51,129 nt of DNA from a phage, in the sequence record PZ445411.1; one strand, given 5' to 3'. The notes beneath the pieces are model-generated. The model saw nothing but the letters and a program-made list of their open reading frames with translations. It ran no database searches and had not been told where the DNA came from. This document shows, one piece after another, positions 3,687 to 46,571 of the stretch. Made by a program: the position numbers and the translations under genes. Each line of letters opens with the position of its first letter. The first letter of the stretch is position 1.

Positions 3687-4799
3687 ATGAAGGCAAAACA
3701 AAGATTTGATAGCGTCCAGGTTAAGGCGCATTTTGATGATAATGGCTTTTTAGTGGATCGCCCAATTGTGGCGCGAATTGGTTTGCAGGAGTACCGCACA
3801 CCGTATGGAATCAGACGAGAGTTCCGACCGGCGTCAGAGGTGTTTAAGGCTGATTCGCTTGCTACGTTCGCAGGCAAGCCGATCACTATCGGTCACGTCA
3901 TAGTGACGCCAGACAATGCTGATCAGGTTGTTGTTGGTTCATGCGCTGGTGCTGGTGTTCCAAATGGTGTTGGCGTTGAAGTTCCGTTAAGTATTTACTC
4001 AAAGCGAGCAATTGAGAGCGCAAAAAAGAAAGACACGGCGGAAATTTCAGTTGGTTACACATCAATTGATATTGATAAACCAGGTTGGGGTAATAATAAA
4101 ACTGGCGATTACTTGTTTGAGGAAGACATTAAGGAAGACTGGAAGCCTGATTCCCCTGATTGGGTTAAATTTGACGCCATTCAGACGAATATCAGTGTTA
4201 ATCACATTGCGCTTGTCTTTCGTGGTCGTGCTGGAATTGCCAAATTAAATCTTGATAGTGAACAGGATTTTCCGTATAGTGACGAGGTTCTAAATGACAA
4301 AGGAGATGAGAAAATGACAGTAAAAATTAAACTTGATGGCGCGGTAGAATTTGATGTTCCAAAGGCCGTTGCTGATCATATTGAGGCGTTAAAGGCAGAT
4401 GCAAAAGCTGCAACCGAAAAAGCTGATGGCCTTGAGGCCGAGCGCGACGCCCTGAAAACTAAAGTCGATGGCATTCCGACGCAGATTGCAGAAGCTGTTA
4501 AGAAGGCAAAGACTGACGCAGAAGAACACGCCAAGCTAGTTGCAGATGCAACTGAAATTGGCATCAAGTGTGACGGCTTGGACGCTAAAGCGATCAAAGT
4601 TGCTTACGTCAAAGAAGTCACTGGCGCTGATATTTCAGAAAAAGCCGATGCATATATTGAAACAGCTTTTGACCTTGCGAAGCAGTCTGATAAAATGGCG
4701 GCGCAGCGTAAATCTGTTAAGGGCGATTCTTTCGAGTCTGGCAAGAGTGAAAAAACCGACTCCCTTGATCCGACTGCGCGTTTGAAAAAACTTAAATAA
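3687..4799 (+). CDS. capsid scaffolding protein (possibly prohead protease-scaffold)
   Basis: 370 aa, RBS AAAGGAG; C-terminal half is charged Ala/Lys/Glu-rich coiled-coil-like sequence typical of scaffolds; lies upstream of capsid genes. Confidence 0.4.
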   Translation: MKAKQRFDSVQVKAHFDDNGFLVDRPIVARIGLQEYRTPYGIRREFRPASEVFKADSLATFAGKPITIGHVIVTPDNADQVVVGSCAGAGVPNGVGVEVPLSIYSKRAIESAKKKDTAEISVGYTSIDIDKPGWGNNKTGDYLFEEDIKEDWKPDSPDWVKFDAIQTNISVNHIALVFRGRAGIAKLNLDSEQDFPYSDEVLNDKGDEKMTVKIKLDGAVEFDVPKAVADHIEALKADAKAATEKADGLEAERDALKTKVDGIPTQIAEAVKKAKTDAEEHAKLVADATEIGIKCDGLDAKAIKVAYVKEVTGADISEKADAYIETAFDLAKQSDKMAAQRKSVKGDSFESGKSEKTDSLDPTARLKKLK

Positions 4800-23360: not shown

Positions 23361-23383
23361 AGGGGCATTACGCCCCTTTTTCA
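23361..23383. terminator. bidirectional terminator between SSB gene (+) and minus-strand ORF
   Basis: AAAGGGGC-attac-GCCCCTTT palindromic hairpin with A/T flanks on both sides. Confidence 0.55.
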
Positions 23384-23625
23384 CTTTCAGCCATCCCAAG
23401 AACAGCAATCACCTTAACAGCAATTCGCTTTGCAAGTTCAGTTTGATGAGCGTTAAGTTTTCCAGTGGTCATTATTGACAGCATTCCGCTCATACTTCCA
23501 AGCCCGTTAAAATCTGACATTGCCGATTTCATAATTGATATTGGTGAATGACCTTCGGCAGCTATTGTGTGCGCTCTCTCTGACAGGTCTTTAACTACCT
23601 GATCAATTCCTTCACTTTTCGTCAT
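23368..23625 (-). CDS. hypothetical protein
   Basis: 85 aa; stop lies in the loop of the bidirectional terminator at 23361-23383. Confidence 0.4.
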   Translation of the reverse strand: MTKSEGIDQVVKDLSERAHTIAAEGHSPISIMKSAMSDFNGLGSMSGMLSIMTTGKLNAHQTELAKRIAVKVIAVLGMAESEKGA

Positions 23626-24103
23626 TTGCTTTTCCTTCAGGAGTTGATTGTTGTTCTGGTATTACAGGCCATGGGCTAATTGATTCCCTTTCTGCGACTG
23701 GCTTTTCAGGTTCAATTCCTAAAAACTTTCCTACAAACTCACCAACAAAATTTGAGCTATCGCTTACATAAACATGCATCCTGTCCAGATCTGCAACAGT
23801 AACGCTATTTGGTGCGATCATGATCCTCTGTTGGTGAAAACCGATATACATCACATTAGCCGGACGCTCAAGAGTCCCCATATTTGGCGCAATTACGCCC
23901 ATTATCCAACAATAATGAATGTTGCCATCAAGCGGCTCACATCCAGCGTTAAGCCAGTTTACTTTCTGGTGAGGAAATGCCATTGATGAATCAGTAGCAT
24001 CACGCCGTAACGACCATTTAACGCCGCCAATTTCAATGATTTGTTTCGGCCTCATCCCGTTGAATTGAGTCACGCCAGCGCCATTTTGATTAATGTTTTG
24101 CAT
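23612..24103 (-). CDS. hypothetical protein
   Basis: 163 aa; RBS AAGGTGA; conserved-looking Cys/His residues (NAGCEPLDG, HYCW) but no family recognised. Confidence 0.5.
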   Translation of the reverse strand: MQNINQNGAGVTQFNGMRPKQIIEIGGVKWSLRRDATDSSMAFPHQKVNWLNAGCEPLDGNIHYCWIMGVIAPNMGTLERPANVMYIGFHQQRIMIAPNSVTVADLDRMHVYVSDSSNFVGEFVGKFLGIEPEKPVAERESISPWPVIPEQQSTPEGKANDEK

Positions 24104-24117
24104 ATCGGTTCACCTTG

Positions 24118-24441
24118 TTACATTGATTTCATTTTACGCAATGCGCAGATACAAGCGGCAGCAAGATCGGTTAATTCTTTCTCAATGCCATGATGCGAGC
24201 CTCCTGCCTTTTCGGTCATTAGCTCTTTGTATTCCATTTCTACAATCGACATTAAGCCGCCTGGCTTGTCAATGTGCGCGTCCCATGTTTTAGGATAGTG
24301 CTTAGTTCTTTCAATAACACTTCCCATAACTGAATCATGTTCATGATCTCGATCATAATCTCCATCATGGCCATTCCCTCCAATTACTACTCGCGGCAAA
24401 TGCACGCGCGGTAAATGATAGCCAGCGATACGAATTTTCAT
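24118..24441 (-). CDS. hypothetical His/Asp-rich protein
   Basis: 107 aa; RBS AAGGGG; tandem HLPRV-HLPRV repeat and GNGHDGDYDRDHEHD segment, then EMEYKEL...EKELTDL. Confidence 0.5.
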   Translation of the reverse strand: MKIRIAGYHLPRVHLPRVVIGGNGHDGDYDRDHEHDSVMGSVIERTKHYPKTWDAHIDKPGGLMSIVEMEYKELMTEKAGGSHHGIEKELTDLAAACICALRKMKSM

Positions 24442-24454
24442 GAGTATATCCCCT

Positions 24455-24480
24455 TATAAAAAAGCGCCCCGAAAGGCGCT
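24455..24480 (-). terminator. rho-independent terminator (minus strand) after the glycine-zipper / Cys-rich ORF pair
   Basis: On the minus strand AGCGCC-tttcgg-GGCGCT followed by TTTTTT. Confidence 0.65.
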
Positions 24481-24487
24481 TGATTTA

Positions 24488-24958
24488 TTAGCAACCGCAG
24501 CAGCCAGTCGGCGGAGTCGCCGGAGTAGGCAACTTGAAGTTTACCAGTTGCTCGACTTGGTTGATTTTGCAATTCAGTGCGGCGGTCTGGTTTGCCTGAG
24601 AAAGAGCAAAACGAGCCTCCTGCAACTGAGCTTTCATATCGCAAATCAGAACAGCCTGAGAATCAGCGAACTGTTGACGAATCAGATCTCGCGTTGCATT
24701 GCCTTGTCGCTCAATATTCAGGTTTGTATCACAGCAACATCTCTCCGCTGCAATCTGTGCCTGATAGGAACGCTCAAGAGCATTAACATCGGCAGCATTA
24801 ATCGCAGCAACTGTCTGGTTAGTACCGCTAACAATCGCGGTATTCAGTCCGGCGAAACCTTGCACCGATGCAAGCAGGTTTTGCGTATTCTGGCTGGTAA
24901 TGCCGTTAAAGGTTGACGCGGCGGAGCGCTCAACGGCAAGGTTTGTGGAGTTTTGACC
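24488..24958 (-). pseudogene. downstream continuation of the glycine-zipper ORF, separated by one in-frame TAA (no start codon or RBS of its own)
   Basis: Open frame runs from just after the TAA at 24959-24961 to 24488 in the same frame as ORF 24959-25192; first ATG is deep inside; Cys-rich C-terminus GCCGC. Confidence 0.3.
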
Positions 24959-25192
24959 TTACAGAGTTTGCAGCCCCAGGTTGTTTACTCCTGTCTGGAT
25001 GTTATTAATACCATCAAGAACAGCGTTAGCACCGACAGCAACAGCAGCACCATCACCACCATAACCACCACGACCATTAAAGCCGTTACCAAACCATGAC
25101 CCAATCAGGCCACCAACAGCACCGCCAAGACCAGCCGCGCCAGCTTCGCCACCAAAACCACCACCAGTAGGGAGTAAAGTCATATCTGACAT
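24959..25192 (-). CDS. glycine-zipper-like small protein
   Basis: 77 aa; RBS AGAGGA; GxxxG-rich sequence GGGFGGEAGAAGLGGAVGGLIGSWFGNGFNGRGGYGG; ends at a TAA that is in frame with a further 157 open codons. Confidence 0.5.
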   Translation of the reverse strand: MSDMTLLPTGGGFGGEAGAAGLGGAVGGLIGSWFGNGFNGRGGYGGDGAAVAVGANAVLDGINNIQTGVNNLGLQTL

Positions 25193-25325
25193 AGTAAATT
25201 CCTCTTTGACGTTAAAAAAAATTAAAAAAAGTTTGCAACATTTATGTTACGACAAAGAGTATGCGCCCAATTACCAGGAATAGATATAAAATATTTGTAA
25301 GCGATATGTCAGCAAATGGCATAAA

Positions 25326-25357
25326 GACGAAAAAAGGCGCAGCCGTAGCCGCGCCTT
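25326..25357 (-). terminator. terminator (minus strand) after tail fibre gene
   Basis: GGCGC...GCGCC hairpin; minus strand reads hairpin then TTTTTT. Confidence 0.55.
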
Positions 25358-25371
25358 GTGATTATTTTTTG

Positions 25372-27597
25372 TTAACTTTCCAGCGTTGTTGGCTTGTCGA
25401 GTAACGCCGCCACCGCCTCTTTGAGATCTGCAATTTCAGATTTAAGTGTTTCGATCTCCTCTTGTTGCTTGTCAACTTTTGCCTTTTGCTCTTTGAATGC
25501 GTTAACCAAAAGAGCCACAACTCCATTATAGTTAATTCCTTTGATTGACTCACCTTTTGGTTCTAATCCACAATCATTGTTTAAATAGTGAACAGCTTCC
25601 GGCAAAACCCTTTCAACATCTTGAGCGATCAATCCAGCCTCAATGCTATAAACGCTGTTTTCATCTTCTATAAGATTATTGCGCTTGTAATAAGTATAAC
25701 CAGTTAGATAATCAATTTTGTCGGATGCCGTTTCAATCTCTTTTAGTTGCGCTTTCATCCTTATGTCTGACGTAGAAATCCATTGGCTACAAGTAGCATT
25801 TCCAGCGCTACTGAAAATGAATTCACCACTCTTTACATAAAGGTGAGTTTCAGCGCCGCCACCAGAAAAGTTAATGGCATCCATTCCAGCAATCCAATCA
25901 TCACCCCAATGAACAACCTTGAATACGTTAAAGGCTGCGTCTTTTCCTGTAATCTCGCAAAGCAACCCACAACCACGATCACGCCAACCAGCAAAAGAGC
26001 CTCCCCCAATTTGACCGGAAATCATGGCACTTCCACCACCTGACCTAACGCCAGCAACCCTAATTGAATTATCATCAACAGGATATATGGTTAAACGACC
26101 ATCAAAACGAATGTTTTGAGGAGAAAATGATGCAATACTTCCACCATTACAATAAACCTGCAATATTCCGTCACCGCCCCATTTAAAACCTGTATCATTA
26201 TCTCCAATTGCTATTGAGTATTCACCAAGAAGATTTCCTTTTTCACCAGTAAGTTCAATTATGTTATCGCTTCTAAAAACTCTTTTCCAACCACGCCAGT
26301 TACCGTTATCGCAAACATTTTCCCATTTGTTACCAGAGTGACCTGTTACTGAAAGAAGACCATATAGCAATTTACTTTCATCACTAGTCTTTCCGTGAAC
26401 ATGTAAATTATACATCCACCAAGCGCCGACTTCCGGCAAACCTACAACGTCGCCACCAGAAGAATAATATCCGCTTTCTGGATTGTTTATAAAAAAACTG
26501 AGAATATCAGTCTTGTCAGCAAGTACAACGGCCCTATTACCAACAGGAATATTCAGGTTCTTTCTTGCTCCAGCTTCACTATTAGATCCAGTGCCTCCAG
26601 CATGAATTGAAAGAGGAATAAAACGTTGCAATGCGGTATCCCAGTAACCCCAACCATCGTTACGAACTGTAAGGTATTTGATCTTATCTGGCGACAGAAT
26701 AAGCGTTTCACCATCGACCTGATTAAATCGGTCAACCTTCAATGCTTCCCTTGCAAGGTCTTTATTTTCCAGATCATTAAGGTTTTGATCTTTATGCAGC
26801 AGATTTTCAGGATGTACCTGTTGCGCCCATTGGCGAGCTTCATCACGCGCAGTTTCAGCGCCATGCTTTGCAGTTTCAGCGGCGCTATTTGCAGATTGAG
26901 CGCCAGTCATGTATTGCTGGGCTGAATCCCTTGCTGAAATAGCTTCGTTTTTCAGATTCGAAACATCACCCTTTATCTGATTCATTTCTGAAACAGCCTG
27001 ATCTTTAGTCTGGTTTACAGCTAAAACACCTTGATCGCGTGCGGAATTAACTTCCGTTATCGCAGAATCTTTAATCTGTTGCGTTTGCTCCTTGATTGCG
27101 TTAGTGTCTGCTTTAATCTGGTTTGTTTCAGCAACAGCAGAATCCTTTATCTGTTGAGTGTCGTTTTTCAGTTGTTCAGTAGCAGCACGATCATTGGCTG
27201 TTTTCTCTGCATCACCTTTAACCTGATTAGCCAGATCTTGCAACTGTTTTAGGTCAAAGTTTTTGAAAAATTCAATAGCTTCCTCGATCTGAGTTTCTTT
27301 GCTTTGATAGTAACGCAGCGTTTCCGCAACATCTTGCGCCAGGCCGTCAACAGTTATTGAGTCATGCAGCAAAATAATGTAGTTGCTTCGCCCAATTTCA
27401 GCGCCGCCAGTTGTGATGGCGCGGATTTGTGTATCGCTGATAACTTCACTGATCACAGCCGCTTGAAATGGAGCATCAATGAAAAAGATTGTTGCACCAG
27501 GGCGAATGAGCGTTAGTTGCTCTCGCCATTTTGTGTCGTATCCAGTGATATAACCTTGCGCGTCCATTGACGCTTGTCCGGTTCTGTAAATTGCCAT
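25372..27597 (-). CDS. tail fibre with C-terminal intramolecular chaperone (peptidase S74-like) domain
   Basis: 741 aa from ATG 27597 (RBS GGGAG); coiled-coil N-terminal part; C-terminus has SDIRMK...GLIAQDVERVLPEAV typical of self-cleaving fibre chaperone domains; followed by a terminator. Confidence 0.8.
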   Translation of the reverse strand: MAIYRTGQASMDAQGYITGYDTKWREQLTLIRPGATIFFIDAPFQAAVISEVISDTQIRAITTGGAEIGRSNYIILLHDSITVDGLAQDVAETLRYYQSKETQIEEAIEFFKNFDLKQLQDLANQVKGDAEKTANDRAATEQLKNDTQQIKDSAVAETNQIKADTNAIKEQTQQIKDSAITEVNSARDQGVLAVNQTKDQAVSEMNQIKGDVSNLKNEAISARDSAQQYMTGAQSANSAAETAKHGAETARDEARQWAQQVHPENLLHKDQNLNDLENKDLAREALKVDRFNQVDGETLILSPDKIKYLTVRNDGWGYWDTALQRFIPLSIHAGGTGSNSEAGARKNLNIPVGNRAVVLADKTDILSFFINNPESGYYSSGGDVVGLPEVGAWWMYNLHVHGKTSDESKLLYGLLSVTGHSGNKWENVCDNGNWRGWKRVFRSDNIIELTGEKGNLLGEYSIAIGDNDTGFKWGGDGILQVYCNGGSIASFSPQNIRFDGRLTIYPVDDNSIRVAGVRSGGGSAMISGQIGGGSFAGWRDRGCGLLCEITGKDAAFNVFKVVHWGDDWIAGMDAINFSGGGAETHLYVKSGEFIFSSAGNATCSQWISTSDIRMKAQLKEIETASDKIDYLTGYTYYKRNNLIEDENSVYSIEAGLIAQDVERVLPEAVHYLNNDCGLEPKGESIKGINYNGVVALLVNAFKEQKAKVDKQQEEIETLKSEIADLKEAVAALLDKPTTLES

Positions 27598-27653
27598 GCG
27601 TTTTCTCCCGTGTTGCATATTAATGTCAATGCAGATAATAGCATTTGCTAAGG

Positions 27654-27679
27654 CAAAAAAAAACCCCGCAATGCGGGGT
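27654..27679 (-). terminator. rho-independent terminator (minus strand) after primase-like gene
   Basis: Minus strand: CCCCGC-att-GCGGGG followed by nine T. Confidence 0.7.
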
Positions 27680-27696
27680 AAAAGTAGCAGTGACAT

Positions 27697-46378: not shown

Positions 46379-46571
46379 CTCTTACTATAGCGCATTCATG
46401 CAGTGCGCTATGTTGAGATAACAACATGAGATCATGAAGATGCGAAACTTCGAAAAAATCGTATCCAAGAAGAAGCGATACAGCTACTACGAGCACAAAG
46501 AGATGAATCAACGCTATCGCAAAAAGCGACAGCGCCCGGGTAAACATTAAAGCAGATATGGAGACAACTAA

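Follow-up and report, generated by a model that had tools for sequence, protein, structure and literature searches.

Positions 24488-25192 of the window (the whole stretch of phage DNA analysed, 51,129 nucleotides) hold a gene of 234 codons on the minus strand, which is broken by an ochre stop at codon 78. The gene lies between a lateral tail fibre gene and three small genes of the same strand:

25372..27696, minus strand: lateral tail fibre gene, 774 aa, upstream of the interrupted gene (Peptidase_S74, E=4e-10; tail-fibre PHROGs, E=2e-195).
25357-25334, minus strand: terminator-like hairpin after the lateral tail fibre gene (10-pair stem with 7 GC pairs, then a T-run).
25205-25200, minus strand: Shine-Dalgarno sequence AGAGGA of the interrupted gene, read from the sequence.
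24488..25192, minus strand: interrupted gene, 234 codons and a stop; orthologue of pSf-1 gp92 and KarlJaspers bas06_0034, member of PHROG 9288.
25192-24962, minus strand: 77-aa remnant, translated (from the ORF listing), with the Gly-rich GxxxG N-terminal region and the first ~22 residues of a long predicted helix.
24961-24959, minus strand: premature ochre TAA in place of Gln78 (CAA), with T at 24961 as the mutated base.
24958-24491, minus strand: 156 untranslated codons, covering most of the long predicted helix, the CCC-E/Q-TN motif, Cys184, Cys208 and a Pro-rich tail ending in GCCGC.
24481-24462, minus strand: terminator-like hairpin right after the natural TAA-TAA (8-pair stem with 5 GC pairs, then a T-run).
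23368..24441, minus strand: three small downstream genes of 107, 163 and 85 aa (PHROGs 9157, 8329 and 7239, function uncharacterised).

The first-pass annotation had reported a 77-aa, GxxxG-rich ORF with a good ribosome-binding site that ends in TAA at 24959-24961, and all of these elements can be read in the sequence: the GAGG core of the Shine-Dalgarno sequence stands 8 nt from the start ATG (25192-25190), residues G23, G27, G31 and G35 keep the GxxxG register, and the stop is present, followed by G. Past the stop the frame is indeed open, for 156 sense codons (the earlier count of 157 includes the terminator), up to the natural end at TAA-TAA (24490-24485, minus strand); the chance of an open frame of that length is (61/64)^156, or ~6e-4. 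Both Cys clusters described for this part, ERCCCD and GCCGC, were found. It was also correctly noted to have neither an ATG near its 5' end nor a ribosome-binding site: the first in-frame GTG is codon 110 and the first ATG is codon 186, neither is preceded by a Shine-Dalgarno sequence, and no restart with a ribosome-binding site was found downstream of the stop. The proposal of a discrete transcription unit holds for the flanking terminator-like hairpins and not for a promoter, as a simple scan found no sigma-70 promoter in the 25193-25333 spacer. On the opposite strand, the untranslated part is overlapped by a 158-aa ATG ORF (window 24440-24916, plus), which is almost certainly spurious, since the minus-strand frame accounts for the conservation (dN/dS well below 1).

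Among related phages the locus is occupied by a single gene. One CDS of 231-251 aa is annotated in pSf-1, KarlJaspers, DanielBernoulli, SP-126, EC147, JLBYU09, herni and slyngel (annotated intact orthologues: pSf-1 gp92, AGI61475.1; KarlJaspers bas06_0034; DanielBernoulli bas08_0030; SP-126_00010; EC147 URC25742.1; herni_2; slyngel_39), and the interrupted gene aligns codon for codon with the single ORFs of its relatives. At the codon level, position 78 is CAA or CAG (Gln) in 16/16 orthologous loci that span the site, and this glutamine, located inside a nearly invariant QGQN motif, is conserved at 90% or more. The frame is likewise uninterrupted at 78 of 79 further loci from IMG/VR, a set that extends to relatives with only 27-35% identity, and in a search of 5.8 billion proteins the best 120 matches are each one ORF of 223-265 aa. 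When Gln78 is restored, residues 1-233 of the protein match the phrog_9288 profile (234 positions) from end to end (E=2.8e-123); the restored protein also falls into VOG6476 (family PHROG 9288 / VOG6476). Comparison with the relatives gives dN/dS values of 0.02-0.08 before the stop (codons 1-77) and 0.05-0.28 after it (codons 79-234), which identifies the apparent continuation as ordinary coding sequence under purifying selection, and the frame beyond the stop is open because it is real coding sequence.

Sequence comparison thus identifies 24488-25192 as one conserved phage gene of 234 codons, not two parts. The members of PHROG 9288 are single uninterrupted ORFs of ~220-265 codons, a trait that the window copy lacks owing to the TAA at codon 78; the window therefore holds a null allele of a PHROG 9288 member. 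The orthologue comparison and the database search of the fused sequence that had been suggested earlier give a consistent answer: the TAA is not conserved, the relatives do not carry two separate genes, and the Gln-restored protein matches its family over the full length. Among the earlier proposals, a nonsense-inactivated (ochre) gene is borne out by uninterrupted orthologues with Gln at codon 78, whereas the idea of a small glycine-zipper peptide that can be extended by a Cys-rich part is contradicted by orthologues that are single ORFs of the 234-aa type. The product, described as unrecognisable, does have a family, and the remark remains valid for the function of that family, which is itself uncharacterised.

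At this locus the window shares 93-98% identity with Hanrivervirus phages (Drexlerviridae, T1-like), among them EC147, herni, pSf-1 and KarlJaspers, and the left and right arms of the window show ~94-97% identity to slyngel and PGN590. In pSf-1, KarlJaspers and EC147 the gene occupies the same locus just past the lateral tail fibre gene, shares its ribosome-binding site and terminators with the window copy and is 95-98% identical to it in DNA and 97-99% in protein; these phages differ from the window by CAA at codon 78 and one protein of 231-234 aa. A GTG-started sub-ORF of 125 aa (24865-24488) is identical to QXV80709.1, annotated as 'putative sugar-binding protein' of phage JakobBernoulli, and to judge from this identity the window phage is very probably the BASEL phage JakobBernoulli (Bas07), a T1-like siphovirus of the genus Hanrivervirus. 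About 19-22 unannotated GenBank records named 'Campylobacter phage' (MG0656xx, host C. jejuni) are 93-97% identical to E. coli Hanrivervirus at the interrupted-gene locus and the structural arm, and look like mislabelled or contaminant coliphages.

BASEL phages went through at least three rounds of plaque purification on E. coli K-12 MG1655 dRM, and their genomes were sequenced on Illumina NextSeq at 50-100x (PMC8594841). The 774-aa lateral tail fibre is described as Gp36 of JakobBernoulli (PMC11990801), and the ability of this phage to form plaques on O16-restored K-12 has been credited to it (BASEL papers; PMC11990801). The attribution fits the window, because the 774-aa ORF carries a C-terminal intramolecular chaperone domain (Peptidase_S74). 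Only the N-terminal ~170-330 residues of the fibre are shared with slyngel and herni (66-75% identity), while the distal module differs; such a mosaic structure agrees with the O16 tropism described for JakobBernoulli Gp36.

A single base separates the interrupted gene from an intact one. Set against 10 distinct close relatives, the 705-nt gene has just one window-private base, the C-to-T change at 24961, so nothing has decayed downstream of the stop. The exact repaired protein (P0121) occurs on 14 public contigs. The TAA allele gave no match in exact-pattern scans of IMG/VR, JGI metagenomes and GTDB genomes, nor in a 61-nt megablast against 50,697 phage records and 5,426 E. coli genomes. One '77-aa' match in Logan was considered as a second TAA allele and rejected, as its contig terminates at ...CTGCA and represents the CAA allele. 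Stop codons could be created by 60 of the 2115 possible single-base changes in the gene (~3%), and 23 of its codons can be converted to a stop by one transition.

Loss of the gene by other routes is seen in several cultured phages. The viable Hanrivervirus PGN590 carries a clean deletion that corresponds to window 23585-25201, from the ribosome-binding site of the gene into the 85-aa gene, and TLS, the archetype of Tlsvirus, lacks the same block in comparison with DanielBernoulli (locus L002, 2527-4226 missing), with 8-nt microhomology at the junction. The interrupted gene and the three small downstream genes make up a cassette, which both phages have lost as a block. In Fulano1 (OL539459; locus L107, about 700-710), a 27-nt deletion between TTTACT direct repeats has removed the ATG and the first nine codons, and only a GTG-started fragment of 125 aa is annotated at the locus. 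Another BASEL phage, SeppeHuegi (Bas24, MZ501104), has a homologue (locus L025, 3806-4513) with TAG at 4052-4054 in place of Gln80, the gene being otherwise intact and annotated as two hypothetical proteins (bas24_0023/bas24_0024). As in the window, this homologue lies downstream of a lateral tail fibre gene, has one in-frame stop in the QGQN motif and keeps its frame intact beyond it; unlike the window phage, SeppeHuegi is a Seuratvirus (Queuovirinae), and its stop is TAG rather than TAA, at Gln80 rather than Gln78. Since phage group, codon and glutamine all differ, the stop in SeppeHuegi is a separate event. In Shigella phage 2019SD1 (MT360681) a frameshift hits the orthologue near codon 72, and the C-terminal part of the gene is found as an inverted duplicate, reflecting either a genuine rearrangement or a mis-assembly.

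T5-like Epseptimavirus phages contain decayed remnants of the gene directly downstream of their lateral tail fibre gene (SuperGirl, locus L023, 3959-4238; polluks, locus L024, 3791-4426), with several stops (at Gln codons) and without the C-terminus. This suggests that the gene travelled with a tail-fibre module and then decayed; some of the remnants are annotated as tiny 'tail fiber protein' ORFs. As read from these genomes, the gene is dispensable and has been repeatedly lost in cultured phages.

Two further observations concern the extent of such losses. PGN590 and TLS, which belong to different genera, lack a nearly identical block of ~1.6-1.7 kb with short microhomology at both junctions; the block takes in the orthologue of the interrupted gene, the two genes after it and the initial ~14-17 codons of the 85-aa gene, and suggests recurrent deletion of the four-gene cassette. 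More fragments of 124/125 aa and a 215-aa variant with an aberrant N-terminus (together P0136, P0140, P0148 and P0143) occur in Logan and ENA assemblies and on a 3.3-kb contig labelled Chlamydia trachomatis (presumably phage contamination), and may be additional null alleles.

Taken together, the data strongly favour an ordinary null allele of the ochre type in a dispensable accessory gene, created by a single recent C-to-T change in a phage that stays viable. In the present isolate, the transition would have turned the CAA of Gln78 into ochre TAA; ribosomes would stop at codon 78 and release a 77-aa stub, and the remaining 156 codons would go untranslated, save for background misreading of UAA. 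The allele presumably originated spontaneously, without mutagenesis, and became fixed by plaque purification. The phage would tolerate the stop because plaque growth on laboratory E. coli does not require the gene, and the downstream frame would still be perfect because the mutation is very recent. The 77-aa stub is presumably non-functional. Misreading of UAA by tRNA-Gln restores the wild-type Gln78, and a trace of full-length protein arising through such basal misreading is possible.

Selection might have promoted the loss, if the intact protein brings a cost or no benefit on rough laboratory hosts or if the 77-aa stub is itself active. Consistent with this idea, cultured phages show at least six independent lesions (the window, SeppeHuegi, Fulano1, PGN590, TLS and 2019SD1) where by contrast 78 of 79 IMG/VR loci are intact, and the sole private change of the window gene belongs to the small fraction of single-base changes that make a stop. 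The gene is nevertheless intact in most relatives isolated on K-12 (herni, egaa, damhaus, KarlJaspers, DanielBernoulli), and two stops falling within three codons amount to only a ~9% coincidence, given the number of codons that one transition can turn into a stop. Selected loss is considered unlikely, albeit compatible with the null allele, as both can be true together. A mutational hotspot behind the stops at Q78 and Q80 was also considered and rejected: neither site is in a CCWGG Dcm context, and the coincidence is no rarer than stated.

A sequencing or consensus artefact would mean that the true base at 24961 is C (CAA), or that a variant from a sub-population won the consensus. The stop-making base is the only private base of the gene, which is just how an error would look, and the repaired protein is exact in 14 other assemblies while the TAA allele turned up nowhere else in the collections searched. 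Yet the change is a substitution and not a homopolymer indel, and the independent null alleles of other isolates show that such lesions do occur. The assembly also appears clean: 157 probes, the annotated CDSs of slyngel and herni compared with the window, revealed no other interrupted conserved gene or frameshift, the interrupted gene being the sole full-length, high-identity match with an internal stop and no large gene being frameshifted. A substitution error is made unlikely by this clean assembly together with the sequencing method and the repeated plaque purification of the probable source phage. An artefact is quite improbable, and the T at 24961 is probably real in the phage DNA. Elsewhere in the window, the counterpart of slyngel_77 (46440-46568, plus), an ORF of 43 codons in slyngel, ends seven codons early with TAA at codon 37, which probably represents trivial C-terminal variation of a tiny hypothetical ORF.

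Low-level programmed readthrough, which the first-pass annotation had entertained, would yield mostly the 77-aa peptide and a minor 234-aa isoform. The perfectly open downstream frame without a restart site speaks for it, and misreading of UAA by tRNA-Gln would insert the native residue. The proposal fails on the stop itself, which is absent from all 16 loci spanning the codon, with 78 of 79 further IMG/VR loci open; no conserved signal can program readthrough where the relatives have no stop. In E. coli, UAA with a following G terminates efficiently and UAA leaks least of the three stops, and known bacterial and phage readthrough uses the leaky UGA or UAG. TAA is moreover a normal terminator of the present genome, indeed the commonest, ending 42 of 72 conserved genes, the natural end of the interrupted gene included. 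The SeppeHuegi stop, being TAG at another Gln, is an independent knockout and points to no common signal. Functionally relevant readthrough is hardly credible on these grounds. The window lacks the recoding apparatus that the remaining schemes call for: a suppressor tRNA was rejected because no tRNA genes were found in the window, codon reassignment because TAA ends the majority of the conserved genes as above, and reinitiation because no in-frame start is preceded by a Shine-Dalgarno sequence.

The intact protein probably consists of a disordered, glycine-zipper-like N-terminus and a helix of ~160 residues forming a coiled coil. In the AlphaFold2 model of the intact protein (mean pLDDT 58, low confidence), residues 1-54 are disordered and residues 55-218 form one helix, of which the TAA takes away ~140 of 164 helical residues along with all eight cysteines of the protein. 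C152, C153, C154, T156 and N157 are invariant, even in homologues of 27-35% identity. The window version of the CCC-E/Q-TN motif reads ERCCCDTN, its E/Q position being taken by Asp, which EC147 also has there, and the Pro-rich C-terminus typical of PHROG 9288 is present in the window protein. The N-terminal region of the enterobacterial version reaches a maximum hydrophobicity of 0.96, below the usual transmembrane threshold.

Searches for a function in Pfam, NCBIfam, PADLOC, PDB profiles (narrow and broad alignment) and, with Foldseek, BFVD returned nothing significant; the PDB profile matches of the intact protein are generic coiled coils only, at E ~ 1. The GxxxG spacing is visible in the sequence, while membership of PF05433 (Glycine zipper 2TM domain) or a SlyB-like family is not established: the window protein has no match to PF05433 at E<=1, SlyB appears in the PDB profile search at E=3.3, and one distant homologue reaches E=0.004 against PF05433 (17.4 bits, under the 24.2-bit cut-off). 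The depositors' 'sugar-binding protein' label was rejected, as Pfam, NCBIfam, PDB and Foldseek reveal no carbohydrate-binding domain and the BASEL paper offers no basis for it. Literature searches with locus tags, PHROG/VOG identifiers, genus names combined with proteomics, and motif words found neither a characterisation of the family nor a mention of the interrupted gene.

More distant homologues form PHROG 16490 (loci L060-L104, e.g., L063, 1477-3525); they are 27-35% identical and come from viral contigs that look Firmicute-type. There the family member is the second gene of a conserved three-gene module, between a Q/N/P-rich protein of ~150 aa and a protein of ~140 aa, placed between tail-fibre and lysis genes; the ~140-aa protein shows a weak BclA_C/C1q-like match below the Pfam cut-off. 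In PHROG 16490 proteins the CCC-E/Q-TN motif is likewise invariant, the N-terminal segment is clearly hydrophobic and the tail is rich in Pro and Cys.

The family adjoins tail-fibre genes in Drexlerviridae, Queuovirinae and T5-like phages and lies near them in Firmicute-type phages; a link to host recognition is therefore the one conserved clue given by the context. The intact protein might thus be an envelope- or membrane-associated coiled coil, possibly disulfide-linked and tied to host recognition. That PHROG 9288 and PHROG 16490 constitute a new class of envelope-associated host-recognition accessories, whose loss is favoured on rough laboratory hosts, is a speculative and rather unlikely extension. 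If it were true, the window TAA would count among at least six independent knockouts, and loss of the gene might contribute to the fact that JakobBernoulli, alone among the BASEL Drexlerviridae, forms plaques on O16-restored K-12.

The ochre allele matters little in itself; its value lies in the correction of an annotation and in a natural knockout. The deposited record contains only the GTG-started 125-aa fragment under an unsupported 'putative sugar-binding protein' label, and the proper entry would be an interrupted gene of 234 codons. JakobBernoulli is a natural knockout of a widespread, uncharacterised family that travels with lateral tail-fibre genes, and the intact copies of KarlJaspers and EC147, at 95-98% nucleotide identity, offer a starting comparison for its function. 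For users of the BASEL collection, null alleles in both Bas07 and Bas24 are relevant to the reading of host-range and defence phenotypes.

With respect to known systems, the architecture of the family, and only its architecture, resembles that of the i-spanin Rz and PBSX XhlA, membrane-anchored coiled-coil proteins of phages, which likewise combine a hydrophobic or Gly-rich N-terminus with a long helix and conserved cysteines; the position of the distant homologues between tail-fibre and lysis genes would fit this analogy. On the other side, sequence and profile comparisons link the family to no spanin or XhlA family, the N-terminus of the enterobacterial version is less hydrophobic than a transmembrane segment usually is, and the Hanrivervirus relatives have a separate cassette of holin, endolysin and spanin-like protein (RzlA) annotated away from the interrupted-gene locus. 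The open in-frame extension past a stop recalls the A1 extension of the Q-beta coat protein; in such cases of programmed readthrough, however, the stop is conserved and is a leaky UGA or UAG, whereas the window has UAA in one isolate. The closest parallel is provided by the classical amber and ochre alleles of non-essential phage genes, in which a Gln codon is likewise turned into a stop by one transition and the phage is likewise viable on a non-suppressor host, the gene being dispensable. There is no difference in kind, except that the window allele was presumably spontaneous where the classical ones came from mutagenesis; nonsense mutations that arise spontaneously in non-essential phage genes are an already known, routine kind of event.
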